Assembly: GCF_017876815.1 (NCBI RefSeq)
Contig: NZ_JAGIOS010000004.1
Coordinates: forward strand, 1 to 32,000
DNA from: Sinorhizobium meliloti
Lineage (GTDB): Bacteria > Pseudomonadota > Alphaproteobacteria > Rhizobiales > Rhizobiaceae
DNA length: 32,000 nucleotides
Reading direction: 5' to 3'
Shown: positions 1 through 31,900 of the stretch, piece by piece
Layout: each line of letters starts with the position of its first letter
Position numbering within the stretch: the stretch's first letter is position 1
Position numbers and translations under genes: made by a program
Notes under the pieces: generated by a model
Databases searched by the model: none
What the model was told of the DNA's origin: nothing
Seen by the model: the letters and a program-made list of their open reading frames with translations, nothing else

Positions 1-1969
1 CGAGCGACAGCCGCCGCAGACGCTCCATCATTTGAACGGCCAACAATGAGTGGCCGCCGAGTTCGAAGAAGTTGTCGTGGCGCCCGACCTGCTCGACGCC
101 GAGAAGCTCGGCCCAGATCCCGGCCAGCAGCGTCTCGATCTCGCCCTGCGGCGCCTCGTAGGCCCGACGCGCATAGGCATCGTCGTCGGGGACCGGCAGC
201 GCCTTGCGATCGAGCTTGCCGTTCACCGTCAGCGGCAGTGCATCCAGCCGCACGAAGGCCGACGGCACCATGTAGTCCGGCAGCAGGCCACCCAGATGCG
301 CCCGCAACGACGCAGCAAGCCCGGCGCCATCGGCTTCGGCCGACCCGTCCGTCGTCTTCGCAACCACATAGGCGACGAGCCGCTTGTCGCCCGCCGCATC
401 CGCGTGCGCCACCACCGCGGCATCGCCGACAAGCTCATGCTCCAGCAGCCGGGCGGCGATCTCGCCCGGCTCGATGCGGAAGCCGCGGATCTTCACCTGG
501 TCGTCATTGCGGCCCAGAAACTCGAGATTGCCGTCCGGCAGGTAGCGCGCCAGGTCGCCGCTCCGGTACATCCGGGCGCCGGCCTTGCCGCTGAACGGAT
601 CCGCCAGGAACCGCTCCGCCGTCAGATCCGGACGGTTCAGGTAGCCGCGCGCCACCCCCGCCCCGCCGATATAAAGCTCACCAACCGCCCCAAACGGAAC
701 CGGCTGACCATGGCCGTCAAGCACATAAAGCCGCGTGTTCGCAATCGGACGGCCGATCGGCACATACCGGTGAGGCGCCTCAATTCTCGTGTCGGTAAGA
801 AAGGTGGTCGCCCAAATCGTAGTCTCCGTCGGACCATAAAGATTTCTGAGAGATTTTACCCTTCTGCCGAGGTTCGAGGCCAGTTCTGAAGGCAACGCTT
901 CGCCGCCACACAACGCACTTAAATCGGGCGCACCCTCCCAGCCGGCGTCGAAGAGCATACGCCACGCCGCGGGGTCGCCTGCATCACAGTTATCTTCTGA
1001 TGGGATAGATACCGCTGTAATCCAATAACACTGGTTCCGTGAGCAACAACGACGTTAGCTCCCACGGCCAGTGGCAGATAGAGTTCCAGCCCCGCAATGT
1101 CGAAAGAGATCGTCGTGATCGCGAGGAGTGAATCGCGCTCTGTGAGGCCCGATACATCTAAAAGAGCGCGTAGAACATTGAGAACACTTGCATGCTCGAC
1201 CATGACGCCCTTAGGCGTGCCGGTGGATCCCGATGTGTAGATGACATAGGCGAGATTGCGGGCTGTCAGGCCGAGGGCATGCGGGTCGGGATCGTCAGGG
1301 ACTGGTCGGCCCAAGCGGCATGGCCGCATCGAGATCGACCGCGCTCAGATCGGCGATTGCCTCGGCGCCCAACGCCGCGCGGCCGGCGGCGTCGCAAAGC
1401 AGCAGCCGCGGGCCGGCATCGTCGAGCAACTGCCGCAGCCGTTCGCCGGATAGGCCGGGTCGAGCGGCACATAGGCGCCGCCGGCCTTGAGGATCGCCAG
1501 CAGTCCCACCACCATCGCCGGGCTGCGCTCGACGCAGATCGCCACTGGCTGGTCCGGCCTCACCCCGAGCCCGATCAGATGATGGGCCAGCCGGTTGGCA
1601 TCGGCATTGAGCGCGCCATAGGAGATCGACTGCTCTTCGAAGACCAGTGCGACCGCGTCGGCACCCGGCGCACCTGCGCCTCGAACAGCGCATGCACGCA
1701 AAGATCCGACGGATAGTCCGCTTCCGTCCGGTTCAACTCCTCCAGCAGGTAGCTGCGCTCCTCAGCCGGAAGAATGTCGAGCTCGCGCACCGGCCTATCG
1801 GGCGCTTGCTCCAGCGCGTCGACCAGTTGCTCGAGCGCCCGCTGCATATAGCCGCAGATCCGATCGGCGGAGATCGTTCGACCGCATCCGCCGTGAGCCC
1901 CAGCTCCTGACCAAAATCATCCACCGACAATGTCAGCGGGTAGTTGGTCCGTTCCTCGCCCCCAGCCAT
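1..1969 (-). pseudogene. Frameshift-broken, 3'-partial continuation of the same NRPS (module 10: end of C domain, Gly-type A domain, start of T domain); may be a sequencing artefact rather than a true pseudogene
   Basis: Minus-strand fragments 1733..1969, 1575..1847, 1345..1701 and 919..1329, plus an unlisted frame open to nt 1, together reproduce the C-end/A/T sequence of intact module 5 (16159-19431). Continuity is broken by seven 1-nt deletions relative to the other copies, at 971-974, 1298/1299, 1317-1318, 1448-1449, 1660-1661, 1876 and 1959-1963. The GGHS Ser codon is at 47-49. The Ser-to-Ser distance M9-M10 is 3266 nt, exactly 3273 (the M4-M5 distance) minus 7. Confidence 0.85.
758..1191 (-). 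other. A-domain specificity cassette c (copy 3 of 3), Gly, carrying a 1-nt deletion
   Basis: Nucleotide sequence matches 16975-17409 except that the G5 run is G4 at 971-974, shifting the frame ([12 protein letters not shown] instead of [12 protein letters not shown]). Confidence 0.8.
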
Positions 1970-4900
1970 TCCATGCCGGACAGCACGTCGCTTGTTCCCT
2001 CGCCGGCCATGGCCGGCGTGTTGTGGCGATAGTTCAGCAGCGCACTGAACAGTGGCGCTGGTGCGGCAATATCGCAGCAGCGTTGCGCCAATGCCAGCGA
2101 GGCATGCTCGTGTGAGAGCAATTCGGCCAGACGGGCGTGGGCGATACGCACACTTTCCTCGACCCCGGTCTCATCCAGATCCAGCCGCAACGGCAAGGTA
2201 TTCATGAACAAGCCCATGGCACGGTCGGCGCCGGCACCCGCATGCATGCGGCCGAACAGCACCGTGCCGAACACCACCTGCTCGCGCCCGCTGCTCAGCG
2301 CCACCACCTGGGCCCAGGCCAGATGGCAAAGGCTAGCCAGACTCACCCCCAGCCGCCGCGCCTGGTGGCGCAGCCGATCGTTGAGCGCCTGCGGCAGCAT
2401 CCGCCGTGCCTCGCGGGATCCGCGGCCGTCGCCGTAGACCTCGCTCAGAGCGAACGGCAGGGTCGGCTCGTCGATGTCGGCCAGCATCTCCCGGAAGAAC
2501 GCTTCATGCGCTTTGGCATCCATGCCAAGCCGCGCCTGCGCCACCAGGTTGCGGAACGGCTGCGGCGCTGCAAGCTCATGCGCGCGCCCCTGCAGCACGG
2601 CCCGGACCTCGGCATGCATCACTTCGGCCGTCGTATGATCGCCGATCAGATGGTGCTGCAACACCAAAAGCAGCCAGCGCCCACTGCCCGGTTCGCGCGC
2701 GATCACGAACCGCATCAGCGGCGCCCGGCCAAGGTCGAGACGGTACTGGCGCGGATCGAACCGCCGCCTGAGCTCATCGGCGCCGGAACCATCACAGCCC
2801 TCCAGCTCGACCTCGAGCACATCCAAGGCCGCCTTGCGCCAGACAACCTGCGCCGGGCTCGACAGACCCTCCCAGACAAAGGCCGTGCGCAGAATGTCGT
2901 GGCGGTCGACCACCTGTTGAACCGCAGCAAGGTAGCGATCGAGCACACCCCGCTCGGCAAAGGCCATCTGCGACATCAGGAGATAGGGGTCACCCTGGGT
3001 TGCCAGCAAATGATGGAACAGAATGCCGTCCTGCAGCGGCGACAGGCCATAGATATCCTGGATATTGCCGACGCCGCCGGGCACCGTCGACACGATCCGG
3101 TCGATCTCCGGTTGGGTAAGATCGATCAGCGGCAGCATCTGCGGCGTGATCGCCGTACTCTGTTCCGTGATCGGGTTGGCAGGCACCTCCACCTCCCGGT
3201 GGCTGCCAAGACTGGCGGCCAGATCGGCAAGCATCGGCTTTGCAAATACGGTGCGAACCTCGACCCCGAGCGACAGCCGCCGCAGACGCTCCATCATTTG
3301 AACGGCCAACAATGAGTGGCCGCCGAGCTCGAAGAAGTTGTCGTGGCGCCCGACCTGCTCGACGCCGAGAAGCTCGGCCCAGATCCCGGCCAGCAGCGTC
3401 TCGATCTCGCCCTGCGGCGCCTCGTAGGCCCGACGCGCATAGGCATCGTCGTCGGGGACCGGCAGCGCCTTGCGGTCGAGCTTGCCGTTCACCGTCAGCG
3501 GCAGTGCATCCAGCCGCACGAAGGCCGACGGCACCATGTAGTCCGGTAGCAGGCCACCCAGATGCGCCCGCAACGACGCAGCAAGCCCGGCGCCATCGGC
3601 TTCGGCCGACCCGTCCGTCGTCTTCGCAACCACATAGGCGACGAGCCGCTTGTCGCCCGCCGCATCCGCGTGCGCCACCACCGCGGCATCGCCGACAAGC
3701 TCATGCTCCAGCAGCCGGGCGGCGATCTCGCCCGGCTCGATGCGGAAGCCGCGGATCTTCACCTGGTCGTCATTGCGGCCCAGAAACTCGAGATTGCCGT
3801 CCGGCAGGTAGCGCGCCAGGTCGCCGCTCCGGTACATCCGGGCGCCGGCCTTGCCGCTGAACGGATCCGCCAGGAACCGCTCCGCCGTCAGATCCGGACG
3901 GTTCAGGTAGCCGCGCGCCACCCCCGCCCCGCCGATATAAAGCTCACCAACCGCCCCAAACGGAACCGGCTGACCATGGCCGTCCAGCAGATAGATCCGC
4001 GTGTTCGAGATCGGACGCCCGATCGTTTCGACAACAGCCTGTCCCCTCGGCATGCAAATCCAAGTCGAGTACGTCGTTGTCTCCGAAGGGGCGTACAGAT
4101 TGCAAATCTTCTGGACGCGCGTGCTCTCGAATATCCTCTCGATTAGGTCTGCCTTCACCCGCTCGCCCGCCAAATTGATGACGCTTGCCGATGCCGGCAC
4201 GGCTTTCTGGTTGACCAGAGCGGTGATCGCCGAGGGGACCGTGTTGATCAAGGAGGCATCCACGGGCGTTCGGGCCAGCTTCAGTGCATCCTCGACGAGG
4301 TACAGCTTGCTTCCCTGCGAAAGCGGAAGGAAACACTCGTAAACGGACAGATCAAAACAGACCGAGGTCGAGAACAGCGTGCGCCTGATCTCTGATTCGG
4401 CAAACACGCCGCCACTCCAATGCAGCAGGTTCACTGTGTTCCGATGCTCGACCATGACGCCCTTAGGCGTGCCGGTGGATCCCGATGTGTAGATGACATA
4501 GGCGAGATTGCGGGCTGTCAGGCCGAGGGCATGCGGGTCGGGATCGTCAGCGGACTGGTCGGCCCAGGCGGGCATGGCCGTATCGAGATCGACCGCGCTC
4601 AGATCGGCGATTGCCTCGGCGCCCAACGCCGCGCGGCCGGCGGCGTCGCAAAGCAGCAGCCGCGGGCCGGCATCGTCGAGCAACTGCCGCAGCCGTTCGC
4701 CGGGATAGGCCGGGTCGAGCGGCACATAGGCGCCGCCGGCCTTGAGGATCGCCAGCAGTCCCACCACCATCGCCGGGCTGCGCTCGACGCAGATCGCCAC
4801 TGGCTGGTCCGGCCTCACCCCGAGCCCGATCAGATGATGGGCCAGCCGGTTGGCATCGGCATTGAGCGCGCCATAGGAGATCGACTGCTCTTCGAAGACC

Positions 4901-7900
4901 AGTGCGACCGCGTCGGGCACCCGGCGCACCTGCGCCTCGAACAGCGCATGCACGCAAAGATCCGACGGATAGTCCGCTTCCGTCCGGTTCAACTCCTCCA
5001 GCAGGTAGCTGCGCTCCTCAGCCGGAAGAATGTCGAGCTCGCGCACCGGCCTATCGGGCGCTTGCTCCAGCGCGTCGACCAGTTGCTCGAGCGCCCGCTG
5101 CATATAGCCGCAGATCCGATCGGCGGAGATCGGTTCGACCGCATCCGCCGTGAGCCCCAGCTCCTGACCAAAATCATCCACCGACAATGTCAGCGGGTAG
5201 TTGGTCCGTTCCTCGTCCCCCAGCCATTCCATGCCGGACAGCACGTCGCTTGTTCCCTCGCCGGCCATGGCCGGCGTGTTGTGGCGATAGTTCAGCAGCG
5301 CACTGAACAGTGGCGCTGGTGCGGCAATATCGCTGCAGCGTTGCGCCAATGCCAGCGAGGCATGCTCGTGTGAGAGCAATTCGGCCAGACGGGCGTGGGC
5401 GATACGCACACTTTCCTCGACCCCGGTCTCATCCAGATCCAGCCGCAACGGCAAGGTATTCATGAACAAGCCCATGGCACGGTCGGCGCCGGCACCCGCA
5501 TGCATGCGGCCGAACAGCACCGTGCCGAACACCACCTGCTCGCGCCCGCTGCTCAGCGCCACCACCTGGGCCCAGGCCAGATGGCAAAGGCTAGCCAGAC
5601 TCACCCCCAGCCGCCGCGCCTGGTGGCGCAGCCGATCGTTGAGCGCCTGCGGCAGCATCCGCCGTGCCTCGCGGGATCCGCGGCCGTCGCCGTAGACCTC
5701 GCTCAGAGCGAACGGCAGGGTCGGCTCGTCGATGTCGGCCAGCATCTCCCGGAAGAACGCTTCATGCGCTTTGGCATCCATGCCAAGCCGCGCCTGCGCC
5801 ACCAGGTTGCGGAACGGCTGCGGCGCTGCAAGCTCATGCGCGCGCCCCTGCAGCACGGCCCGGACCTCGGCATGCATCACTTCGGCCGTCGTATGATCGC
5901 CGATCAGATGGTGCTGCAACACCAAAAGCAGCCAGCGCCCACTGCCCGGTTCGCGCGCGATCACGAACCGCATCAGCGGCGCCCGGCCAAGGTCGAGACG
6001 GTACTGGCGCGGATCGAACCGCCGCCTGAGCTCATCGGCGCCGGAACCATCACAGCCCTCCAGCTCGACCTCGAGCACATCCAAGGCCGCCTTGCGCCAG
6101 ACAACCTGCGCCGGGCTCGACAGACCCTCCCAGACAAAGGCCGTGCGCAGAATGTCGTGGCGGTCGACCACCTGTTGAACCGCAGCAAGGTAGCGATCGA
6201 GCACACCCCGCTCGGCAAAGGCCATCTGCGACATCAGGAGATAGGGGTCACCCTGGGTTGCCAGCAAATGATGGAACAGAATGCCGTCCTGCAGCGGCGA
6301 CAGGCCATAGATATCCTGGATATTGCCGACGCCGCCGGGCACCGTCGACACGATCCGGTCGATCTCCGGTTGGGTAAGATCGATCAGCGGCAGCATCTGC
6401 GGCGTGATCGCCGTACTCTGTTCCGTGATCGGGTTGGCAGGCACCGCCACCTCCCGGTGGCTGCCAAGACTGGCGGCCAGATCGGCAAGCATCGGCTTTG
6501 CAAATACGGTGCGAACCTCGACCCCGAGCGACAGCCGCCGCAGACGCTCCATCATTTGAACGGCCAACAATGAGTGGCCGCCGAGTTCGAAGAAGTTGTC
6601 GTGGCGCCCGACCTGCTCGACGCCGAGAAGCTCGGCCCAGATCCCGGCCAGCAGCGTCTCGATCTCGCCCTGCGGCGCCTCGTAGGCCCGACGCGCATAG
6701 GCATCGTCGTCGGGGACCGGCAGCGCCTTGCGGTCGAGCTTGCCGTTCACCGTCAGCGGCAGTGCATCCAGCCGCACGAAGGCCGACGGCACCATGTAGT
6801 CCGGTAGCAGGCCACCCAGATGCGCCCGCAACGACGCAGCAAGCCCGGCGCCATCGGCTTCGGCCGACCCGTCCGTCGTCTTCGCAACCACATAGGCGAC
6901 GAGCCGCTTGTCGCCCGCCGCATCCGCGTGCGCCACCACCGCGGCATCGCCGACAAGCTCATGCTCCAGCAGCCGGGCGGCGATCTCGCCCGGCTCGATG
7001 CGGAAGCCGCGGATCTTCACCTGGTCGTCATTGCGGCCCAGAAACTCGAGATTGCCGTCCGGCAGGTAGCGCGCCAGGTCGCCGCTCCGGTACATCCGGG
7101 CGCCGGCCTTGCCGCTGAACCGATCCGCCAGGAACCGCTCCGCCGTCAGATCCGGACGGTTCAGGTAGCCGCGCGCCACCCCCGCCCCGCCGATATAAAG
7201 CTCACCAACCGCCCCAAACGGGACGGGTGCGCCATGACCGTCAAGCACATAAAGCCGCGTGTTCGCAATCGGACGGCCGATCGGGATTGACGTAAGGCCT
7301 TCTACGTCGCCCGTTATTTCGAATGCGGCGCATCCAACGGTGGCCTCTGTCGGACCAAAATGGTTGATCAGGCGCACATTTGGAAAACGCCGCTGCCAAA
7401 GTTGCATGTCTGCTGGAACCAGCGATTCGCCACCAACCATAAGTGCTTTAGTTGGAGGTTGTCCCTCGTTATCATCAATCTTTTTGTTAAGAATGCTCAG
7501 ATGCGAGGGAGTAACTTTAACCAAGTCGAAGGCTTGTCCCTTCTTCAATTCACCGAGAGAGATAATTTGGACAGTTGGATCTAGAAGATGAAGTTTCGTT
7601 CCCGCCAACAGCGGACCGAATAGGGTCGTAACGATGCCATCAAAACTCATTGAATGCGTTACAGGCGAGCCGTTGGACGTTCTTTTGTAAAAGCTTCGAT
7701 TTGACCACTGCAAATAGTTCGACAAGTGTTGATGCTCGACCATGACGCCCTTAGGCGTGCCGGTGGATCCCGATGTGTAGATGACATAGGCGAGATTGCG
7801 GGCTGTCAGGCCGAGGGCATGCGGGTCGGGATCGTCAGCGGACTGGTCGGCCCAGGCGGGCATGGCTGCATCGAGATCGACCGCGCTCAGATCGGCGATT

Positions 7901-10900
7901 GCCTCGGCGCCCAACGCCGCGCGACCGGCGGCGTCGCAAAGCAGCAGCCGCGGGCCGGCATCGTCGAGCAACTGCCGCAGCCGTTCGCCGGGATAGGCCG
8001 GGTCGAGCGGCACATAGGCGCCGCCGGCCTTGAGGATCGCCAGCAGTCCCACCACCATCGCCGGGCTGCGCTCGACGCAGATCGCCACTGGCTGGTCCGG
8101 CCTCACCCCGAGCCCGATCAGATGATGGGCCAGCCGGTTGGCATCGGCATTGAGCGCGCCATAGGAGATCGACTGCTCTTCGAAGACCAGTGCGACCGCG
8201 TCGGGCACCCGGCGCACCTGCGCCTCGAACAGCGCATGCACGCAAAGATCCGACGGATAGTCCGCTTCCGTCCGGTTCAACTCCTCCAGCAGGTAGCTGC
8301 GCTCGTCGGGAGGCAGGATGTCCAGCTCGGACACCGGCTGCTCGGCATCGGCAAGCATCGCCCGCAGCAGCGCCAGCAGATAACCACATTGCCGCTCGAT
8401 CGTCGCCCGGTCGAACAACGCCGTCGCATAACCGAGAGTCCCGGCGATGGCCTCGCCCTGCTCTCCCAGGTTCAGTTCCAGATCGAACTTGACCTGATCG
8501 AGCCCCTCGCCCGCAGCCTCCACCTGCAGCCCCGGCAGGTCCAATGACCCGCCGGTGTTGTTCTGCCAGGCCAGTCCCACCTGGAACAACGGCGTGTGAC
8601 CGAGAGCCCGGGGCGGCTGGACGATCTCCACCACCTGCTCGAACGGCAGGTCCTGATGATCCTGCGCAGTCAAGGCCGCGCGCCGCGCCCGTTCCAGGAG
8701 ATCGGACACGCTCGGCTCGCCCGACAGATCGATTCGAACCGCCAGGGTGTTGACGAAGAAACCGATTAGATCCTCGATCTCGCGGCGACGACGATTGGCC
8801 GTCGGCACACCGATCACGATATCGTCCTGCCCGGACAGGCGCGACAGCACCGCAGCCCAGGCCGCCAGCACTGTCATGAACAACGTCGTGCCATGCTGCC
8901 GGCTCAGCCGCTTGAGCCCGCGCGTCAGAGCCTCATCGATGATAACCGGCACGCTGGCTCCGGCAAACGACTGCTGTGCCGGCCGCGGCCGGTCCGTCGG
9001 CAGCGCCAGACGGGCCGGGGCGCCAGACAGGGTGTCGCGCCAATACTGCGCCTGACGCTGCAGCCGCTCGCCGGACAACCATTGCCGTTGCCAGGCGGCA
9101 TAATCCGGATACTGGATCGCCAGCGGCGGCAAAGGATCGTCCTCTCCAGCCTCAAACGCGCGGTAAAGGCTGCTGAGCTCGCGCACCAGCACCCCCATCG
9201 ACCAGCCGTCCGAGACTATGTGATGCTGCGTCAGCAGAAAGACGTGCTCCTCATCCGCCAGCCGGATCAGCCGGCCGCGGATCAGCGGCTCGCGCGCCAG
9301 ATCGAACGGCGTGCGCGCCTCTTCTTGGCACAGATCCAAAAGCGCGGCTTGCGCATCCGGCCTGTCCCGCAGATCGTGCTCGACCACCGGCAATCCCCTG
9401 TCCCCGGACAAAATCTGGACCTGCGGGTCATCCTCTCCGGCGACGAACGTGCAGCGCAGCGCCTCGTGACGGGCAAACAGGCGGTCAAGGCTGCGCCGCC
9501 AGGCGACACGGTCGAGTCTGCCCTGCAGTCGCCACCCCAGGGGAATGTTATAGTTCGTGCTGTCTTCGTCCAACTGTGCCAAGAACCAGAGACGCTGCTG
9601 CGAATAGGACAGCGGAAGCGCACCATCACGTCCGACTGGCATGATGACCGGTGCTGTCTGCGCACCAGAACCGTTCAGCACTTCGCCAACACTTAGCGCC
9701 AAATCGGCCAATGTTGGCTTGGCGAACAGGATCGCCAGCGGCAGCTCCACTGCCAAGGCCTCGGTCAGCCGGACGAGCACGCGCACCGCCAACAATGAGT
9801 GGCCGCCGAGCTCGAAGAAGTTGTCGTGGCGCCCGACCTGCTCGACGCCGAGAAGCTCGGCCCAGATCCCGGCCAGCAGCGTCTCGATCTCGCCCTGCGG
9901 CGCCTCGTAGGCCCGACGCGCATAGGCATCGTCGTCGGGGACCGGCAGCGCCTTGCGGTCGAGCTTGCCGTTCACCGTCAGCGGCAGTGCATCCAGCCGC
10001 ACGAAGGCCGACGGCACCATGTAGTCCGGTAGCAGGCCACCCAGATGCGCCCGCAACGACGCAGCAAGCCCGGCGCCATCGGCTTCGGCCGACCCGTCCG
10101 TCGTCTTCGCAACCACATAGGCGACGAGCCGCTTGTCGCCCGCCGCATCCGCGTGCGCCACCACCGCGGCATCGCCGACAAGCTCATGCTCCAGCAGCCG
10201 GGCGGCGATCTCGCCCGGCTCGATGCGGAAGCCGCGGATCTTCACCTGGTCGTCATTGCGGCCCAGAAACTCGAGATTGCCGTCCGGCAGGTAGCGCGCC
10301 AGGTCGCCGCTCCGGTACATCCGGGCGCCGGCCTTGCCGCTGAACGGATCCGCCAGGAACCGCTCCGCCGTCAGATCCGGACGGTTCAGGTAGCCGCGCG
10401 CCACCCCCGCCCCGCCGATATAAAGCTCACCAACCGCCCCAAACGGAACCGGCTGACCATGGCCGTCCAGCAGATAGATCCGCGTGTTCGAGATCGGACG
10501 CCCGATCGTTTCGACAACAGCCTGTCCCCTCGGCATGCAAATCCAAGTCGAGTACGTCGTTGTCTCCGAAGGGGCGTACAGATTGCAAATCTTCTGGACG
10601 CGCGTGCTCTCGAATATCCTCTCGATTAGGTCTGCCTTCACCCGCTCGCCCGCCAAATTGATGACGCTTGCCGATGCCGGCACGGCTTTCTGGTTGACCA
10701 GAGCGGTGATCGCCGAGGGGACCGTGTTGATCAAGGAGGCATCCACGGGCGTTCGGGCCAGCTTCAGTGCATCCTCGACGAGGTACAGCTTGCTTCCCTG
10801 CGAAAGCGGAAGGAAACACTCGTAAACGGACAGATCAAAACAGACCGAGGTCGAGAACAGCGTGCGCCTGATCTCTGATTCGGCAAACACGCCGCCACTC

Positions 10901-19900: not shown

Positions 19901-22900
19901 ACCACCGCGGCATCGCCGACAAGCTCATGCTCCAGCAGCCGGGCGGCGATCTCGCCCGGCTCGATGCGGAAGCCGCGGATCTTCACCTGGTCGTCATTGC
20001 GGCCCAGAAACTCGAGATTGCCGTCCGGCAGGTAGCGCGCCAGGTCGCCGCTCCGGTACATCCGGGCGCCGGCCTTGCCGCTGAACGGATCCGCCAGGAA
20101 CCGCTCCGCCGTCAGATCCGGACGGTTCAGGTAGCCGCGCGCCACCCCCGCCCCGCCGATATAAAGCTCACCAACCGCCCCAAACGGAACCGGCTGACCA
20201 TGGCCGTCCAGCAGATAGATCCGCGTGTTCGAGATCGGACGCCCGATCGTTTCGACAACAGCCTGTCCCCTCGGCATGCAAATCCAAGTCGAGTACGTCG
20301 TTGTCTCCGAAGGGGCGTACAGATTGCAAATCTTCTGGACGCGCGTGCTCTCGAATATCCTCTCGATTAGGTCTGCCTTCACCCGCTCGCCCGCCAAATT
20401 GATGACGCTTGCCGATGCCGGCACGGCTTTCTGGTTGACCAGAGCGGTGATCGCCGAGGGGACCGTGTTGATCAAGGAGGCATCCACGGGCGTTCGGGCC
20501 AGCTTCAGTGCATCCTCGACGAGGTACAGCTTGCTTCCCTGCGAAAGCGGAAGGAAACACTCGTAAACGGACAGATCAAAACAGACCGAGGTCGAGAACA
20601 GCGTGCGCCTGATCTCTGATTCGGCAAACACGCCGCCACTCCAATGCAGCAGGTTCACTGTGTTCCGATGCTCGACCATGACGCCCTTAGGCGTGCCGGT
20701 GGATCCCGATGTGTAGATGACATAGGCGAGATTGCGGGCTGTCAGGCCGAGGGCATGCGGGTCGGGATCGTCAGCGGACTGGTCGGCCCAGGCGGGCATG
20801 GCCGTATCGAGATCGACCGCGCTCAGATCGGCGATTGCCTCGGCGCCCAACGCCGCGCGACCGGCGGCGTCGCAAAGCAGCAGCCGCGGGCCGGCATCGT
20901 CGAGCAACTGCCGCAGCCGTTCGCCGGGATAGGCCGGGTCGAGCGGCACATAGGCGCCGCCGGCCTTGAGGATCGCCAGCAGTCCCACCACCATCGCCGG
21001 GCTGCGCTCGACGCAGATCGCCACTGGCTGGTCCGGCCTCACCCCGAGCCCGATCAGATGATGGGCCAGCCGGTTGGCATCGGCATTGAGCGCGCCATAG
21101 GAGATCGACTGCTCTTCGAAGACCAGTGCGACCGCGTCGGGCACCCGGCGCACCTGCGCCTCGAACAGCGCATGCACGCAAAGATCCGACGGATAGTCCG
21201 CTTCCGTCCGGTTCAACTCCTCCAGCAGGTAGCTGCGCTCCTCAGCCGGAAGAATGTCGAGCTCGCGCACCGGCCTATCGGGCGCTCGCTCCAGCGCGTC
21301 GACCAGTTGCTCGAGCGCCCGCTGCATATAGCCGCAGATCCGATCGGCGGAGATCGGTTCGACCGCATCCGCCGTGAGCCCCAGCTCCTGACCAAAATCA
21401 TCCACCGACAATGTCAGCGGGTAGTTGGTCCGTTCCTCGCCCCCCAGCCATTCCATGCCGGACAGCACGTCGCTTGTTCCCTCGCCGGCCATGGCCGGCG
21501 TGTTGTGGCGATAGTTCAGCAGCGCACTGAACAGTGGCGCTGGTGCGGCAATATCGCTGCAGCGTTGCGCCAATGCCAGCGAGGCATGCTCGTGTGAGAG
21601 CAATTCGGCCAGACGGGCGTGGGCGATACGCACACTTTCCTCGACCCCGGTCTCATCCAGATCCAGCCGCAACGGCAAGGTATTCATGAACAAGCCCATG
21701 GCACGGTCGGCGCCGGCACCCGCATGCATGCGGCCGAACAGCACCGTGCCGAACACCACCTGCTCGCGCCCGCTGCTCAGCGCCACCACCTGGGCCCAGG
21801 CCAGATGGCAAAGGCTAGCCAGACTCACCCCCAGCCGCCGCGCCTGGTGGCGCAGCCGATCGTTGAGCGCCTGCGGCAGCATCCGCCGTGCCTCGCGGGA
21901 TCCGCGGCCGTCGCCGTAGACCTCGCTCAGAGCGAACGGCAGGGTCGGCTCGTCGATGTCGGCCAGCATCTCCCGGAAGAACGCTTCATGCGCTTTGGCA
22001 TCCATGCCAAGCCGCGCCTGCGCCACCAGGTTGCGGAACGGCTGCGGCGCTGCAAGCTCATGCGCGCGCCCCTGCAGCACGGCCCGGACCTCGGCATGCA
22101 TCACTTCGGCCGTCGTATGATCGCCGATCAGATGGTGCTGCAACACCAAAAGCAGCCAGCGCCCACTGCCCGGTTCGCGCGCGATCACGAACCGCATCAG
22201 CGGCGCCCGGCCAAGGTCGAGACGGTACTGGCGCGGATCGAACCGCCGCCTGAGCTCATCGGCGCCGGAACCATCACAGCCCTCCAGCTCGACCTCGAGC
22301 ACATCCAAGGCCGCCTTGCGCCAGACAACCTGCGCCGGGCTCGACAGACCCTCCCAGACAAAGGCCGTGCGCAGAATGTCGTGGCGGTCGACCACCTGTT
22401 GAACCGCAGCAAGGTAGCGATCGAGCACACCCCGCTCGGCAAAGGCCATCTGCGACATCAGGAGATAGGGGTCACCCTGGGTTGCCAGCAAATGATGGAA
22501 CAGAATGCCGTCCTGCAGCGGCGACAGGCCATAGATATCCTGGATATTGCCGACGCCGCCGGGCACCGTCGACACGATCCGGTCGATCTCCGGTTGGGTA
22601 AGATCGATCAGCGGCAGCATCTGCGGCGTGATCGCCGTACTCTGTTCCGTGATCGGGTTGGCAGGCACCGCCACCTCCCGGTGGCTGCCAAGACTGGCGG
22701 CCAGATCGGCAAGCATCGGCTTTGCAAATACGGTGCGAACCTCGACCCCGAGCGACAGCCGCCGCAGACGCTCCATCATTTGAACGGCCAACAATGAGTG
22801 GCCGCCGAGTTCGAAGAAGTTGTCGTGGCGCCCGACCTGCTCGACGCCGAGAAGCTCGGCCCAGATCCCGGCCAGCAGCGTCTCGATCTCGCCCTGCGGC

Positions 22901-25900
22901 GCCTCGTAGGCCCGACGCGCATAGGCATCGTCGTCGGGGACCGGCAGCGCCTTGCGGTCGAGCTTGCCGTTCACCGTCAGCGGCAGTGCATCCAGCCGCA
23001 CGAAGGCCGACGGCACCATGTAGTCCGGTAGCAGGCCACCCAGATGCGCCCGCAACGACGCAGCAAGCCCGGCGCCATCGGCTTCGGCCGACCCGTCCGT
23101 CGTCTTCGCAACCACATAGGCGACGAGCCGCTTGTCGCCCGCCGCATCCGCGTGCGCCACCACCGCGGCATCGCCGACAAGCTCATGCTCCAGCAGCCGG
23201 GCGGCGATCTCGCCCGGCTCGATGCGGAAGCCGCGGATCTTCACCTGGTCGTCATTGCGGCCCAGAAACTCGAGATTGCCGTCCGGCAGGTAGCGCGCCA
23301 GGTCGCCGCTCCGGTACATCCGGGCGCCGGCCTTGCCGCTGAACCGATCCGCCAGGAACCGCTCCGCCGTCAGATCCGGACGGTTCAGGTAGCCGCGCGC
23401 CACCCCCGCCCCGCCGATATAAAGCTCACCAACCGCCCCAAACGGGACGGGTGCGCCATGACCGTCAAGCACATAAAGCCGCGTGTTCGCAATCGGACGG
23501 CCGATCGGCACATTCGTCGATGCGGAAAGATCTGCAGGGATGTCATGGAAAGCACAACCGACAACCGCTTCCGTCGGGCCATACTCGTTGACCATTCTAG
23601 CCGCCGGCTGGATCTGACGCCATAGCTCGACCGTCGAAGACGACAATGCCTCACCGCCAATGACGAGCACCTCCACCTGACTGGCATCTCCAGCCGACTG
23701 CAGTTGCTGTCCAAGAACATCCAGATGGCTCGGGGTGACATTGACCAGCCCGCACGGTGTGCCGACCCTTGACCTGATCCCCTCGACCTCGTCCCCCTCT
23801 TTCGTAAGCAATGCATGGCCGCCAGAGACCAAAGGCGCAAACAGGCTGTTGACCGTGGCATCGAAGGCGAGCGAAGAGGAGACGACGGATGAGGATATGG
23901 GAGCGTAGCTCTCACGAGCCCAGCTTAGATAATTGGTCATCCCGCGATGCTCGACCATGACGCCCTTAGGCGTGCCGGTGGATCCCGATGTGTAGATGAC
24001 ATAGGCGAGATTGCGGGCTGTCAGGCCGAGGGCATGCGGGTCGGGATCGTCAGCGGACTGGTCGGCCCAGGCGGGCATGGCTGCATCGAGATCGACCGCG
24101 CTCAGATCGGCGATTGCCTCGGCGCCCAACGCCGCGCGACCGGCGGCGTCGCAAAGCAGCAGCCGCGGGCCGGCATCGTCGAGCAACTGCCGCAGCCGTT
24201 CGCCGGGATAGGCCGGGTCGAGCGGCACATAGGCGCCGCCGGCCTTGAGGATCGCCAGCAGTCCCACCACCATCGCCGGGCTGCGCTCGACGCAGATCGC
24301 CACTGGCTGGTCCGGCCTCACCCCGAGCCCGATCAGATGATGGGCCAGCCGGTTGGCATCGGCATTGAGCGCGCCATAGGAGATCGACTGCTCTTCGAAG
24401 ACCAGTGCGACCGCGTCGGGCACCCGGCGCACCTGCGCCTCGAACAGCGCATGCACGCAAAGATCCGACGGATAGTCCGCTTCCGTCCGGTTCAACTCCT
24501 CCAGCAGGTAGCTGCGCTCCTCAGCCGGAAGAATGTCGAGCTCGCGCACCGGCCTATCGGGCGCTTGCTCCAGCGCGTCGACCAGTTGCTCGAGCGCCCG
24601 CTGCATATAGCCGCAGATCCGATCGGCGGAGATCGGTTCGACCGCATCCGCCGTGAGCCCCAGCTCCTGACCAAAATCATCCACCGACAATGTCAGCGGG
24701 TAGTTGGTCCGTTCCTCGTCCCCCAGCCATTCCATGCCGGACAGCACGTCGCTTGTTCCCTCGCCGGCCATGGCCGGCGTGTTGTGGCGATAGTTCAGCA
24801 GCGCACTGAACAGTGGCGCTGGTGCGGCAATATCGCTGCAGCGTTGCGCCAATGCCAGCGAGGCATGCTCGTGTGAGAGCAATTCGGCCAGACGGGCGTG
24901 GGCGATACGCACACTTTCCTCGACCCCGGTCTCATCCAGATCCAGCCGCAACGGCAAGGTATTCATGAACAAGCCCATGGCACGGTCGGCGCCGGCACCC
25001 GCATGCATGCGGCCGAACAGCACCGTGCCGAACACCACCTGCTCGCGCCCGCTGCTCAGCGCCACCACCTGGGCCCAGGCCAGATGGCAAAGGCTAGCCA
25101 GACTCACCCCCAGCCGCCGCGCCTGGTGGCGCAGCCGATCGTTGAGCGCCTGCGGCAGCATCCGCCGTGCCTCGCGGGATCCGCGGCCGTCGCCGTAGAC
25201 CTCGCTCAGAGCGAACGGCAGGGTCGGCTCGTCGATGTCGGCCAGCATCTCCCGGAAGAACGCTTCATGCGCTTTGGCATCCATGCCAAGCCGCGCCTGC
25301 GCCACCAGGTTGCGGAACGGCTGCGGCGCTGCAAGCTCATGCGCGCGCCCCTGCAGCACGGCCCGGACCTCGGCATGCATCACTTCGGCCGTCGTATGAT
25401 CGCCGATCAGATGGTGCTGCAACACCAAAAGCAGCCAGCGCCCACTGCCCGGTTCGCGCGCGATCACGAACCGCATCAGCGGCGCCCGGCCAAGGTCGAG
25501 ACGGTACTGGCGCGGATCGAACCGCCGCCTGAGCTCATCGGCGCCGGAACCATCACAGCCCTCCAGCTCGACCTCGAGCACATCCAAGGCCGCCTTGCGC
25601 CAGACAACCTGCGCCGGGCTCGACAGACCCTCCCAGACAAAGGCCGTGCGCAGAATGTCGTGGCGGTCGACCACCTGTTGAACCGCAGCAAGGTAGCGAT
25701 CGAGCACACCCCGCTCGGCAAAGGCCATCTGCGACATCAGGAGATAGGGGTCACCCTGGGTTGCCAGCAAATGATGGAACAGAATGCCGTCCTGCAGCGG
25801 CGACAGGCCATAGATATCCTGGATATTGCCGACGCCGCCGGGCACCGTCGACACGATCCGGTCGATCTCCGGTTGGGTAAGATCGATCAGCGGCAGCATC

Positions 25901-28900
25901 TGCGGCGTGATCGCCGTACTCTGTTCCGTGATCGGGTTGGCAGGCACCGCCACCTCCCGGTGGCTGCCAAGACTGGCGGCCAGATCGGCAAGCATCGGCT
26001 TTGCAAATACGGTGCGAACCTCGACCCCGAGCGACAGCCGCCGCAGACGCTCCATCATTTGAACGGCCAACAATGAGTGGCCGCCGAGTTCGAAGAAGTT
26101 GTCGTGGCGCCCGACCTGCTCGACGCCGAGAAGCTCGGCCCAGATCCCGGCCAGCAGCGTCTCGATCTCGCCCTGCGGCGCCTCGTAGGCCCGACGCGCA
26201 TAGGCATCGTCGTCGGGGACCGGCAGCGCCTTGCGGTCGAGCTTGCCGTTCACCGTCAGCGGCAGTGCATCCAGCCGCACGAAGGCCGACGGCACCATGT
26301 AGTCCGGTAGCAGGCCACCCAGATGCGCCCGCAACGACGCAGCAAGCCCGGCGCCATCGGCTTCGGCCGACCCGTCCGTCGTCTTCGCAACCACATAGGC
26401 GACGAGCCGCTTGTCGCCCGCCGCATCCGCGTGCGCCACCACCGCGGCATCGCCGACAAGCTCATGCTCCAGCAGCCGGGCGGCGATCTCGCCCGGCTCG
26501 ATGCGGAAGCCGCGGATCTTCACCTGGTCGTCATTGCGGCCCAGAAACTCGAGATTGCCGTCCGGCAGGTAGCGCGCCAGGTCGCCGCTCCGGTACATCC
26601 GGGCGCCGGCCTTGCCGCTGAACCGATCCGCCAGGAACCGCTCCGCCGTCAGATCCGGACGGTTCAGGTAGCCGCGCGCCACCCCCGCCCCGCCGATATA
26701 AAGCTCACCAACCGCCCCAAACGGAACCGGCTGACCATGGCCGTCAAGCACATAAAGCCGCGTGTTCGCAATCGGACGGCCGATCGGCACATTCGTCGAT
26801 GCGGAAAGATCTGCAGGGATGTCATGGAAAGCACAACCGACAACCGCTTCCGTCGGGCCATACTCGTTGACCATTCTAGCCGCCGGCTGGATCTGACGCC
26901 ATAGCTCGACCGTCGAAGACGACAATGCCTCACCGCCAATGACGAGCACCTCCACCTGACTGGCATCTCCAGCCGACTGCAGTTGCTGTCCAAGAACATC
27001 CAGATGGCTCGGGGTGACATTGACCAGCCCGCACGGTGTGCCGACCCTTGACCTGATCCCCTCGACCTCGTCCCCCTCTTTCGTAAGCAATGCATGGCCG
27101 CCAGAGACCAAAGGCGCAAACAGGCTGTTGACCGTGGCATCGAAGGCGAGCGAAGAGGAGACGACGGATGAGGATATGGGAGCGTAGCTCTCACGAGCCC
27201 AGCTTAGATAATTGGTCATCCCGCGATGCTCGACCATGACGCCCTTAGGCGTGCCGGTGGATCCCGATGTGTAGATGACATAGGCGAGATTGCGGGCTGT
27301 CAGGCCGAGGGCATGCGGGTCGGGATCGTCAGCGGACTGGTCGGCCCAGGCGGGCATGGCTGCATCGAGATCGACCGCGCTCAGATCGTCGATTGCCTCG
27401 GCGCCCAACGCCGCGCGGCCGGCGGCGTCGCAAAGCAGCAGCCGCGGGCCGGCATCGTCGAGCAACTGCCGCAGCCGTTCGCCGGGATAGGCCGGGTCGA
27501 GCGGCACATAGGCGCCGCCGGCCTTGAGGATCGCCAGCAGTCCCACCACCATCGCCGGGCTGCGCTCGACGCAGATCGCCACTGGCTGGTCCGGCCTCAC
27601 CCCGAGCCCGATCAGATGATGGGCCAGCCGGTTGGCATCGGCATTGAGCGCGCCATAGGAGATCGACTGCTCTTCGAAGACCAGTGCGACCGCGTCGGGC
27701 ACCCGGCGCACCTGCGCCTCGAACAGCGCATGCACGCAAAGATCCGACGGATAGTCCGCTTCCGTCCGGTTCAACTCCTCCAGCAGGTAGCTGCGCTCCT
27801 CAGCCGGAAGAATGTCGAGCTCGCGCACCGGCCTATCGGGCGCTTGCTCCAGCGCGTCGACCAGTTGCTCGAGCGCCCGCTGCATATAGCCGCAGATCCG
27901 ATCGGCGGAGATCGGTTCGACCGCATCCGCCGTGAGCCCCAGCTCCTGACCAAAATCATCCACCGACAATGTCAGCGGGTAGTTGGTCCGTTCCTCGTCC
28001 CCCAGCCATTCCATGCCGGACAGCACGTCGCTTGTTCCCTCGCCGGCCATGGCCGGCGTGTTGTGGCGATAGTTCAGCAGCGCACTGAACAGTGGCGCTG
28101 GTGCGGCAATATCGCTGCAGCGTTGCGCCAATGCCAGCGAGGCATGCTCGTGTGAGAGCAATTCGGCCAGACGGGCGTGGGCGATACGCACACTTTCCTC
28201 GACCCCGGTCTCATCCAGATCCAGCCGCAACGGCAAGGTATTCACGAACAAGCCCATGGCACGGTCGGCGCCGGCACCCGCATGCATGCGGCCGAACAGC
28301 ACCGTGCCGAACACCACCTGCTCGCGCCCGCTGCTCAGCGCCACCACCTGGGCCCAGGCCAGATGGCAAAGGCTAGCCAGACTCACCCCCAGCCGCCGCG
28401 CCTGGTGGCGCAGCCGATCGTTGAGCGCCTGCGGCAGCATCCGCCGTGCCTCGCGGGATCCGCGGCCGTCGCCGTAGACCTCGCTCAGAGCGAACGGCAG
28501 GGTCGGCTCGTCGATGTCGGCCAGCATCTCCCGGAAGAACGCTTCATGCGCTTTGGCATCCATGCCAAGCCGCGCCTGCGCCACCAGGTTGCGGAACGGC
28601 TGCGGCGCTGCAAGCTCATGCGCGCGCCCCTGCAGCACGGCCCGGACCTCGGCATGCATCACTTCGGCCGTCGTATGATCGCCGATCAGATGGTGCTGCA
28701 ACACCAAAAGCAGCCAGCGCCCACTGCCCGGTTCGCGCGCGATCACGAACCGCATCAGCGGCGCCCGGCCAAGGTCGAGACGGTACTGGCGCGGATCGAA
28801 CCGCCGCCTGAGCTCATCGGCGCCGGAACCATCACAGCCCTCCAGCTCGACCTCGAGCACATCCAAGGCCGCCTTGCGCCAGACAACCTGCGCCGGGCTC

Positions 28901-31900
28901 GACAGACCCTCCCAGACAAAGGCCGTGCGCAGAATGTCGTGGCGGTCGACCACCTGTTGAACCGCAGCAAGGTAGCGATCGAGCACACCCCGCTCGGCAA
29001 AGGCCATCTGCGACATCAGGAGATAGGGGTCACCCTGGGTTGCCAGCAAATGATGGAACAGAATGCCGTCCTGCAGCGGCGACAGGCCATAGATATCCTG
29101 GATATTGCCGACGCCGCCGGGCACCGTCGACACGATCCGGTCGATCTCCGGTTGGGTAAGATCGATCAGCGGCAGCATCTGCGGCGTGATCGCCGTACTC
29201 TGTTCCGTGATCGGGTTGGCAGGCACCGCCACCTCCCGGTGGCTGCCAAGACTGGCGGCCAGATCGGCAAGCATCGGCTTTGCAAATACGGTGCGAACCT
29301 CGACCCCGAGCGACAGCCGCCGCAGACGCTCCATCATTTGAACGGCCAACAATGAGTGGCCGCCGAGCTCGAAGAAGTTGTCGTGGCGCCCGACCTGCTC
29401 GACGCCGAGAAGCTCGGCCCAGATCCCGGCCAGCAGCGTCTCGATCTCGCCCTGCGGCGCCTCGTAGGCCCGACGCGCATAGGCATCGTCGTCGGGGACC
29501 GGCAGCGCCTTGCGATCGAGCTTGCCGTTCACCGTCAGCGGCAGTGCATCCAGCCGCACGAAGGCCGACGGCACCATGTAGTCCGGTAGCAGGCCACCCA
29601 GATGCGCCCGCAACGACGCAGCAAGCCCGGCGCCATCGGCTTCGGCCGACCCGTCCGTCGTCTTCGCAACCACATAGGCGACGAGCCGCTTGTCGCCCGC
29701 CGCATCCGCGTGCGCCACCACCGCGGCATCGCCGACAAGCTCATGCTCCAGCAGCCGGGCGGCGATCTCGCCCGGCTCGATGCGGAAGCCGCGGATCTTC
29801 ACCTGGTCGTCATTGCGGCCCAGAAACTCGAGATTGCCGTCCGGCAGGTAGCGCGCCAGGTCGCCGCTCCGGTACATCCGGGCGCCGGCCTTGCCGCTGA
29901 ACCGATCCGCCAGGAACCGCTCCGCCGTCAGATCCGGACGGTTCAGGTAGCCGCGCGCCACCCCCGCCCCGCCGATATAAAGCTCACCAACCGCCCCAAA
30001 CGGAACCGGCTGACCATGGCCGTCAAGCACATAAAGCCGCGTGTTCGCAATCGGACGGCCGATCGGCACATTCGTCGATGCGGAAAGATCTGCAGGGATG
30101 TCATGGAAAGCACAACCGACAACCGCTTCCGTCGGGCCATACTCGTTGACCATTCTAGCCGCCGGCTGGATCTGACGCCATAGCTCGACCGTCGAAGACG
30201 ACAATGCCTCACCGCCAATGACGAGCACCTCCACCTGACTGGCATCTCCAGCCGACTGCAGTTGCTGTCCAAGAACATCCAGATGGCTCGGGGTGACATT
30301 GACCAGCCCGCACGGTGTGCCGACCCTTGACCTGATCCCCTCGACCTCGTCCCCCTCTTTCGTAAGCAATGCATGGCCGCCAGAGACCAAAGGCGCAAAC
30401 AGGCTGTTGACCGTGGCATCGAAGGCGAGCGAAGAGGAGACGACGGATGAGGATATGGGAGCGTAGCTCTCACGAGCCCAGCTTAGATAATTGGTCATCC
30501 CGCGATGCTCGACCATGACGCCCTTAGGCGTGCCGGTGGATCCCGATGTGTAGATGACATAGGCGAGATTGCGGGCTGTCAGGCCGAGGGCATGCGGGTC
30601 GGGATCGTCAGCGGACTGGTCGGCCCAGGCGGGCATGGCTGCATCGAGATCGACCGCGCTCAGATCGGCGATTGCCTCGGCGCCCAACGCCGCGCGACCG
30701 GCGGCGTCGCAAAGCAGCAGCCGCGGGCCGGCATCGTCGAGCAACTGCCGCAGCCGTTCGCCGGGATAGGCCGGGTCGAGCGGCACATAGGCGCCGCCGG
30801 CCTTGAGGATCGCCAGCAGTCCCACCACCATCGCCGGGCTGCGCTCGACGCAGATCGCCACTGGCTGGTCCGGCCTCACCCCGAGCCCGATCAGATGATG
30901 GGCCAGCCGGTTGGCATCGGCATTGAGCGCGCCATAGGAGATCGACTGCTCTTCGAAGACCAGTGCGACCGCGTCGGGCACCCGGCGCACCTGCGCCTCG
31001 AACAGCGCATGCACGCAAAGATCCGACGGATAGTCCGCTTCCGTCCGGTTCAACTCCTCCAGCAGGTAGCTGCGCTCGTCGGGAGGCAGGATGTCCAGCT
31101 CGGACACCGGCTGCTCGGCATCGGCAAGCATCGCCCGCAGCAGCGCCAGCAGATAACCACATTGCCGCTCGATCGTCGCCCGGTCGAACAACGCCGTCGC
31201 ATAACCGAGAGTCCCGGCGATGGCCTCGCCCTGCTCTCCCAGGTTCAGTTCCAGATCGAACTTGACCTGATCGAGCCCCTCGCCCGCAGCCTCCACCTGC
31301 AGCCCCGGCAGGTCCAATGACCCGCCGGTGTTGTTCTGCCAGGCCAGTCCCACCTGGAACAACGGCGTGTGACCGAGAGCCCGGGGCGGCTGGACGATCT
31401 CCACCACCTGCTCGAACGGCAGGTCCTGATGATCCTGCGCAGTCAAGGCCGCGCGCCGCGCCCGTTCCAGGAGATCGGACACGCTCGGCTCGCCCGACAG
31501 ATCGATTCGAACCGCCAGGGTGTTGACGAAGAAACCGATTAGATCCTCGATCTCGCGGCGACGACGATTGGCCGTCGGCACACCGATCACGATATCGTCC
31601 TGCCCGGACAGGCGCGACAGCACCGCAGCCCAGGCCGCCAGCACTGTCATGAACAACGTCGTGCCATGCTGCCGGCTCAGCCGCTTGAGCCCGCGCGTCA
31701 GAGCCTCATCGATGATAACCGGCACGCTGGCTCCGGCAAACGACTGCTGTGCCGGCCGCGGCCGGTCCGTCGGCAGCGCCAGACGGGCCGGGGCGCCAGA
31801 CAGGGTGTCGCGCCAATACTGCGCCTGACGCTGCAGCCGCTCGCCGGACAACCATTGCCGTTGCCAGGCGGCATAATCCGGATACTGGATCGCCAGCGGC

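Follow-up and report, generated by a model that had tools for sequence, protein, structure and literature searches.

Part of a nonribosomal peptide synthetase (NRPS) gene fills the 32,000-nucleotide stretch of Sinorhizobium meliloti DNA analysed here (positions 1 to 32,000 of contig NZ_JAGIOS010000004.1; this whole stretch is called the window below). The ten condensation-adenylation-thiolation (C-A-T) modules of this gene alternate between DNA that is nearly invariant from module to module and blocks that come in a few sharply different versions. We conclude, with a probability of roughly 0.8, that this is an NRPS of the unit-and-linker kind that undergoes concerted evolution, and that its specificity cassettes (inside the A domains) and its C blocks are re-dealt by homologous recombination. 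The analysis shows the anatomy of the modules, the homogenisation of the constant parts, the incongruent histories of constant parts and cassettes, the free combination of cassettes with C types and the replacement of cassettes between strains; the recombination mechanism and any selection for diversity are what we infer from them. An initial annotation of the window had read the gene as one in which nature exchanged A-domain cassettes repeatedly. The exchange of cassettes stands, but the direction that was given to it does not, as it is the family's own classes that are re-dealt (below).

1..32000, minus strand: part of the NRPS gene with ten C-A-T modules, extending past both window ends (from the open reading frame list, the translation and Pfam)

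Constant linkers and exchangeable blocks

The window's reading frame gave the Pfam families AMP-binding, Condensation, AMP-binding_C and PP-binding in repeating order (over its first 3,400 amino acids), motif scans of the full translation found the A3, A5, A8, A10 and T-domain Ser core motifs of a modular NRPS, and the best matches among PDB structures are LgrA, McyA, PvdL and GrsA. The frame enters the window inside a C domain (motif HHIVSDG). The gene was cut at the T-domain anchor FFELGGHSL into ten module units that were aligned with MAFFT; M1 to M10 are the modules in gene order on the minus strand, and a, b, c and d are the cassette classes.

Two stretches of the modules are constant. 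The first, the CA-A3 linker, is ~100% identical from GAGCGCAGCTACCTG (ERSYLL) to the CAT His codon of PKGVMVEH. Identity collapses at the next base after this codon, and it is ~100% again in the second stretch, the A6-T1 linker, from CCGATCGG (IGRP) through A10 to GGHSLLA in the T domain. The CA-A3 linker, on the 5' side of the cassette, has only 5 variable sites in 573 (M1-M9), and the A6-T1 linker on the 3' side has 20 in 723, 15 of them within the first 63 nt. The ten A domains had been said to share their DNA from A1 to this His and again from IGRP through A10 into the T domain; the His and IGRP edges are correct, but the shared DNA does not start at A1, since it begins in the C-A linker 45 codons upstream.

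27226..27798, minus strand: CA-A3 linker of M2, 573 nt, which stands for ten copies (from the alignment)
CA-A3 linker copies, minus strand, starts: 30505, 27226, 23947, 20668, 17410, 14137, 10927, 7732, 4444, 1192
26065..26787, minus strand: A6-T1 linker of M2, 723 nt (IGRP, A10 and on to the T-domain Ser motif), which stands for ten copies

Between the two linkers lie the cassettes. They come in four versions, distributed over the modules exactly as the initial annotation had it (a in M1-M3; b in M4, M7 and M9; c in M5, M6 and M10; d in M8), with class lengths of 438, 417, 432 and 447 nt for a, b, c and d, respectively (139-149 codons). Copies of the same class are identical in the window, and the classes have only 23-34% amino-acid identity to one another.

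30067..30504, minus strand: M1 cassette, class a, code DANNVGEVGK
26788..27225, minus strand: M2 cassette, class a, identical to the M1 and M3 copies
23509..23946, minus strand: M3 cassette, class a, followed by a 16-nt patch
20209..20667, minus strand: M4 cassette, class b, code DLYNNALTYK (core 20251-20667; class-linked 42-nt 3' tail 20209-20250)
16978..17409, minus strand: M5 cassette, class c, code DILQLGLIWK
13705..14136, minus strand: M6 cassette, class c
10468..10926, minus strand: M7 cassette, class b (core 10510-10926 plus 3' tail)
7285..7731, minus strand: M8 cassette, class d, code DGTKMGHVGK, GC 0.48, followed by a 16-nt patch
3985..4443, minus strand: M9 cassette, class b (core 4027-4443 plus 3' tail)
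761..1191, minus strand: M10 cassette, class c, with one 1-nt deletion (974)
23446-23461 (M3) and 7222-7237 (M8), minus strand: the 16-nt patch

Are the cassette edges truly sharp and shared? A maximum-likelihood two-breakpoint fit placed the left breakpoint 0-2 nt past the His codon in six of six class pairs (2*dLL, twice the log-likelihood difference, 655-809) and the right breakpoints at +418 to +447 nt, with the exception of the b/d pair at +480/+510. The edges are therefore sharp, as had been predicted, and do not reflect a gradual decay of identity. The further claim that the breakpoints are codon-precise and common to all holds for the left edge in every pair in the window, but it is not universal: the class b right edge lies ~42 nt further 3' (8 class-linked differences), class f of related plasmids also ends further 3', class i of Bradyrhizobium starts at -19 nt, the cassette edges of Rhizobium sp. 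007 are ragged, and the variant cassette a1 (below) is defined by an internal patch. In addition, class-linked single-nucleotide differences reach ~138 nt 5' and ~160 nt 3' of the cassette and move with it between strains. Directly after the cassette, M3 (class a) and M8 (class d) alone have in common a 16-nt patch (GACGGTCATGGCGCACCCGTCCCG context), which encodes GHGAPVP, not GHGQPVP. Other rhizobia have the matching flank beside their d-type cassettes, and the patch was probably left behind by an older conversion tract.

The cassette spans the A domain from the FD motif (position 235) to YGPTE+4 (positions 330/331) and so holds nine of the ten specificity-code positions. It corresponds to the specificity-conferring sub-domain, from the end of A3 to IGRP just ahead of A6, and both points agree with the earlier description. 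Stachelhaus codes were derived by hand from the sequence; against what we take to be the textbook codes, a reads as an Asn-like variant, b as Cys or Cys-like, c as Gly and d as Asp-like. Judged from these codes, the cassettes would set substrate choice. Relatives of the gene beyond the window carry further classes, including e, f, g, h and i, and a Bradyrhizobium cassette with a Ser code.

A second exchangeable block, which the initial annotation missed, begins just after GGHSLLA (the half of the T domain past the Ser motif) and runs through the C domain to ERSYLL. It has two alleles in the window. The 1545-nt allele contains the motifs HHLLATQGD and HHLIGDH and is predicted to encode a dual E/C domain; such domains were reportedly defined by Balibar et al. 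in 2005 by an N-terminal HH[I/L]xxxxGD beside the HHxxxD active-site motif. The shorter allele is of the LCL type.

24520..26064, minus strand: E/C-like allele, 1545 nt, with HHLLATQGD and HHLIGDH (motifs read directly)
E/C allele copies (n=7), minus strand: 27799-29343, 24520-26064, 21241-22785, 17983-19527, 14710-16254, 5017-6561, 1761-3303
LCL allele, 1482 nt, with HHIVSDG, minus strand: 11500-12981, 8305-9786 and partial 31078-32000

Histories of the linkers and the cassettes

Relatives were found by a megablast search of the window against plasmids. The matches were S. meliloti ml46 pMl1 (99.5-99.9%; over 27.5 kb of the NRPS the identity is 99.86%), S. medicae with WSM419 pSMED03 among its plasmids (~98%), Rhizobium leguminosarum and R. 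ruizarguesonis (~97%), Rhizobium sp. 007 (~82%) and Bradyrhizobium (~80%). About 65 PLSDB records contain most of the chassis.

The linkers are 97-100% identical within each genome (97.4-100% within WSM419) except in Rhizobium sp. 007, which has two chassis lineages that are 81-87% identical, and they are ~80% identical between Sinorhizobium and Bradyrhizobium. The consensus linkers of ml46 and WSM419 differ at 10 sites in CA-A3 (three alignment-edge columns set aside) and 7 in A6-T1, and for most of these differences, including a 3-nt indel, 16 of 16 copies in each strain hold that strain's own state. Between ml46 and Bradyrhizobium, 115 of 122 and 126 of 128 linker differences are fixed in all copies of both. 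Paralogues within a genome are thus closer to one another than orthologues are between genomes, with lineage-specific changes fixed in every copy, and because of this fixation the invariance of the scaffold is placed after the split of the lineages. This is the classical pattern of concerted evolution, and the linkers are kept invariant through continual homogenisation.

The cassettes behave differently: whatever the genus, each groups with its own class, and their conservation equals or exceeds that of the scaffold (84-99% for a, 81-99% for b and 90-98% for c). Between the window and WSM419 the cassettes are 97.9-99.3% and the linkers 97.5-98.2% identical; between the window and Bradyrhizobium cassette b is 81%, cassette d 69% and the linkers 80-81% identical; and for the pair ml46 and Rhizobium sp. 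007 the values are 96.5% for cassette f and 80-83% for the scaffolds. Viewed within one gene, the window scaffolds are at least 99% identical among themselves and ~80% identical to Bradyrhizobium scaffolds, but for cassettes a and b identity is 74-81% with the same class in Bradyrhizobium and only ~40% with the other classes of their own gene. The histories of scaffold and cassette are incongruent because cassettes follow their class across genera and scaffolds are homogenised within a genome, so the incongruence that the initial annotation expected was borne out when each was compared across genera. The cassette classes are old members of this NRPS gene family, with the scaffold repeatedly homogenised around them.

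Could one module instead have been amplified recently, with positive selection then driving rapid divergence by point mutation in the binding-pocket region alone? The near identity of the modules outside the cassette and the identity of same-class copies would fit such a history. The classes, though, differ in length and composition as well as having only the 23-34% amino-acid identity noted above, between flanks with 0-5 differences, and the same classes occur in genera whose scaffolds differ by 20%; intermediate cassettes that link the classes were not seen among the sequences compared. We regard this explanation as so improbable that it can be given almost no weight.

The other origin to be weighed is that outside donors put four unrelated sub-domains into an invariant scaffold, each at the same two codon-precise sites, which is the initial annotation's picture (cassettes dropped into one invariant scaffold) taken literally. 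The sharp boundaries at the edges of conserved motifs agree with this, as does a jump in base composition exactly at those boundaries. Cassette GC is 0.48-0.59 and scaffold GC 0.68-0.70, and GC3 (GC content of third codon positions) is 0.09 to 0.35 lower in the cassettes than in their flanks, against a cassette-minus-flank difference of +0.011 +/- 0.046 in 140 control A domains from unrelated loci, which have no such jump. The control loci came from a contig profile search that was made from the alignment around cassette d, whose patterns were too generic and which returned 80 unrelated NRPS loci with 33-59% identity; these then served as the base-composition control.

It is the scaffold, however, and not the cassettes, that is the compositional outlier. 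The repeated parts of the gene have a GC3 of 0.82-0.85 (linkers) and 0.79 (C blocks), and the low-copy or single-copy parts have values of 0.48-0.74 (cassettes), 0.50-0.56 (the formyltransferase-like or F domain), 0.57 (the thioesterase or TE unit) and 0.39-0.57 (docking tails), like the neighbouring plasmid genes at 0.49-0.73. In composition the cassettes agree with the neighbouring genes and with F and TE, which are single-copy, and the scaffold stands apart. An outside donor, moreover, was not found: the closest sequences to the scaffold, and likewise to cassettes a, c and d, all belong to the same rhizobial family, and the next-best match for cassette d has 39% identity. The cassettes have co-diverged with the scaffold between genera, the scaffold became invariant only after the lineages split (above), the right boundaries vary in classes b and f, and patches smaller than a cassette exist. 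Foreign import is therefore an unlikely origin, and the view of a pre-existing invariant scaffold that received it is not supported.

The GC3 contrast is also present in Bradyrhizobium. There the linkers agree with those of Sinorhizobium at no more than 63-70% of third positions (~35% divergence), so the contrast looks maintained and not like the trace of a fresh import. GC-biased gene conversion, acting only where partners exist, is the natural candidate for its cause; the alternative is a GC-rich foreign chassis that was spread by conversion. Polarised consensus substitutions between S. meliloti and S. medicae did not discriminate, as they are AT-biased in both parts (~20 S>W, that is G or C to A or T, to 4 W>S in the chassis and 16 to 5 in the cassettes). 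A more far-reaching idea, which we put forward tentatively and hold to be less likely than not, is that the locus is a plasmid-borne, self-shuffling generator of diversity, whose perfect in-phase linkers would allow ordinary homologous recombination to assemble cassettes and chirality blocks into a new peptide in almost all rhizobial strains. In this reading one reading frame would show two stable states of base composition, with a GC3 of ~0.8 where conversion partners exist and of ~0.5-0.7 where the sequence is single-copy, and could constitute a natural experiment in GC-biased conversion within one gene.

Module orders and exchange between strains

Each module of the window and of eight relatives was typed by its C-block allele (E for dual E/C-like, L for LCL) and its cassette class, and these nine sequences gave nine different module strings. 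Two of them are as follows.

ml46: L-a E-a E-a E-b E-c E-c L-b L-d E-c E-b / L-f L-b L-a1 L-a E-e E-c
WSM419: L-a E-a E-a E-d E-b E-b E-c E-b / L-b L-a L-f L-a1 L-a L-a E-e E-c

AK21 has 14 modules and strain 1132 has 15 (one lost), ml56 has a deletion, and WSM1115 has a six-module tandem duplication. The clearest single replacement is between ml46 and S. medicae ml4, which are collinear over 9.9 kb at 97-100% identity save for ~450 nt at module 9, where the cassette has changed from c to b and identity is 39-56% over five 100-nt windows. The two modules differ only inside Acore and the flanks are kept, so this is a natural Acore sub-domain swap, and the proposal that cassettes are exchanged in nature is supported by it. 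At position 6 the same two strains differ in chirality only (E-c in one and L-c in the other, by block classification alone). Cassettes and C blocks also assort: cassette d follows an LCL domain in the window but an E/C domain in WSM419, and, as a qualitative count over the window and the eight relatives, E-a and L-a, E-b and L-b, E-c and L-c, and E-d and L-d all occur.

Smaller exchanges are also present. In WSM419 an a-cassette is joined to an f-type tail (IGERIPDLRIYLL), and a1 is cassette a with a 115-nt internal patch that alters code positions 239 and 278 (DANNVGEVGK to DATKVGEVGK, the latter presumably the textbook Asn code). This variant is present in ml46 (module 13), AK21, strain 1132, ml4, WSM419 and WSM1115. 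Within S. meliloti, modules 9 and 10 are b then c in the window (38-3303) and c then b in ml46. In the window the T domain of M10 is of the kind found ahead of E/C blocks, which means that the gene goes on past module 10, where the first ml46 gene ends. The stretch from the end of M8 to M10 resembles that from the end of M3 to M5 of ml46, a likeness that suggests a multi-module duplication in the source strain.

These observations can be accommodated by a simple mechanism. The NRPS would consist of two genes with ~14-19 modules on conjugative accessory plasmids of rhizobia, and RecA-type gene conversion together with unequal crossing-over among the repeats would keep the linkers near-identical. 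A conversion tract or a double crossover across an island would produce an exact replacement, since the flanks are hundreds of bases of perfect in-phase homology, and a single unequal crossover would add or remove whole modules in frame. The sharp shared boundaries would then be edges of heterology at conserved motifs and not the sites of a dedicated mechanism, and the outcome would be a different predicted peptide in each strain.

Because the order data come from public assemblies of 2.8-kb perfect repeats, of which ml56, WSM1115 and the window's M10 are visibly error-prone, it must be asked whether multi-mapped reads in assembly or polishing homogenised the repeats and scrambled their order. 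M10 has seven homopolymer-type 1-nt deletions, the ml56 and WSM1115 records are split into many coding sequences, and in many rhizobia short-read assembly breaks this gene up into contigs of 400-1000 bp, all of which speak for such an artefact. On the other side, the same architecture is found in eight independently assembled plasmid records, including the finished WSM419 pSMED03, AK21 and strain 1132, and A domains that diverge in the typical way (50-60% identity) cannot be turned by polishing into stretches of 573 and 723 nt that are identical. The reading frames of ml46, AK21, strain 1132 and the Sanger-era WSM419 are intact (in WSM419, two of 8,915 and 8,914 amino acids), and we consider an artefactual origin very unlikely. 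The M10 deletions cause frameshifts and an apparent stop at 1933-1935. They are likely homopolymer errors of long-read sequencing within a repeat, but M10 could be a real pseudogene.

974..1958, minus strand: seven 1-nt deletions in M10 relative to M5/M6 and ml46, mostly in short C runs

Several points nevertheless count against an NRPS whose cassettes and C blocks are re-dealt by recombination under concerted evolution. The recombination events are known by inference and none was observed directly; repeated re-amplification from one module with re-insertion of cassettes would give a similar pattern; part of the diversity in module order could be mis-assembly of perfect repeats; the substrate specificities are hand-derived codes set beside textbook codes; and plain concerted evolution does not explain the GC3 contrast between repeated and unique parts. 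Our estimate for the concerted-evolution and re-dealing explanation, given at the outset, takes these into account.

Replicons, neighbours and known systems

The plasmids that carry the cluster are conjugative (MOBP or MOBQ relaxase, MPF_T). In ml46 the assembly line is encoded by two genes (11,063 and 6,778 amino acids) with 16 modules, and it starts with the N-terminal formyltransferase-like domain, fused to an LCL domain, and ends with the C-terminal TE. Conserved neighbours are genes for a LysR regulator, a SagB-type dehydrogenase, a phosphopantetheinyl transferase, a ParB-N protein and a 511-amino-acid hypothetical protein. The predicted products appear to be rich in Cys, Gly and Asx. A second copy of the chassis, 84% identical and in 7 places, is present on CP140947.1 (an S. 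meliloti 1.56-Mb replicon, megaplasmid or chromid) and is a possible partner for inter-replicon exchange. In R. leguminosarum Vaf10 the cluster is decaying, with an interrupted c-type cassette and the insertion sequences IS21, IS3 and ISNCY between NRPS fragments. Repeated plus-strand open reading frames that occur once per module in the window (392, 309 and 206 amino acids; e.g., 2137-3315, 5395-6573 and 15088-16266) were considered and set aside; they lie antisense to the GC-rich repeats and are by-products of these, not genes.

When cassettes c and d and the 5' linker were used as queries in protein searches, the matches were mostly 400-1000 bp contigs that hold one cassette and a stub of linker on each side. 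They are from Bradyrhizobium, Mesorhizobium, Rhizobium, Ensifer, Paraburkholderia (P. mimosarum) and Cupriavidus, so the beta-rhizobia are reached as well. Because the matches are short contigs from so many genera, the family is widespread in nodule bacteria and routinely breaks short-read assemblies, a behaviour that its repeat structure explains; it is probably systematically mis-assembled and under-annotated. No relevant literature on the rhizobial cluster (pSMED03; the Sinorhizobium NRPS plasmid) was found in the searchable library, and the present work flags an uncharacterised cluster, widespread in legume symbionts, with strain-specific predicted products.

The locus has practical uses as well. 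It offers engineers of NRPSs four fusion points already tried in nature (directly downstream of the post-A3 His; at IGRP; after GGHSLLA; at ERSYLL), and it supplies a ready panel for studies of exchangeability, with at least nine cassettes, two C types, one chassis and the a/a1 pair, which differs by a 115-nt patch and two code positions. For the question of biased gene conversion in bacteria, which is under debate, the GC3 contrast could be informative.

How does this gene compare with known cases of A-domain exchange? Engineered swaps of the pocket sub-domain reportedly change the substrate, as in the GrsA work of Kries et al. in 2015 and the enduracidin work of Thong et al. in 2021 (flavodoxin-like sub-domain). 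The engineered swaps are laboratory constructs; a constant A-domain frame is common to them and to the gene described here.

Among natural cases are the A domains of the hormaomycin synthetase, which are said to have inspired Cruesemann et al. in 2013. In cyanobacterial and other NRPSs, Acore sub-domain swaps with diverse boundaries and usually longer stretches have been deduced between gene clusters (Baunach et al. 2021, PMC8097286). As in those swaps, only the specificity part is replaced here, and neither the C-A linker nor Asub nor its interface with T is disturbed; the present case differs in that the unit is minimal (139-149 codons), all classes of the window have the same left edge, and ten copies stand in one gene. 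Medema et al. 2014 (PMC4256081) described concerted evolution of NRPS and polyketide synthase (PKS) genes; the extreme cases are the mycolactone PKS and the syringopeptin NRPS. The domains there likewise cluster by gene cluster and not by position, are internally homogenised and were proposed to be interoperable, but that study treated whole domains. In the present gene the homogenised DNA ends at the edges of sub-domains, and islands remain in between.

The closest likeness is with Ca. Endobryopsis kahalalidifaciens, for which a layout of specificity units (A3-A6), chirality units (T1-CA) and CA-A3 and A6-T1 linkers was reported, with the statement that this organisation was not observed in other NRPS pathways (PMC11428043, PNAS Nexus 2024). 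The window has this layout: the left edge lies 0-2 nt after the His that follows A3, the right edge at IGRP or, for class b, 42 nt later, the alleles diverge after GGHSLLA and re-converge at ERSYLL, all modules share the linkers, and cassettes and C types assort. The partition, the CA-A3 and A6-T1 linkers as recombination substrates and the independent assortment of units are therefore the same in the two systems. They differ in their setting, here a conjugative plasmid of a free-living or symbiotic alphaproteobacterial host and there the genome of an intracellular algal symbiont with ~20 paralogous pathways; in the linkers, which here are essentially identical at the DNA level, with diversity lying between strains at one locus; in epimerisation, by predicted dual E/C domains here and separate E domains there; and in the CA boundary, 45 codons upstream of A1 here and ~28 there. 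The gene is thus a second independent natural example of A3-A6 and T1-CA exchange units, in culturable, tractable bacteria with dozens of finished plasmids, and it is a new and unusually clean case of a known layout, not a new principle.

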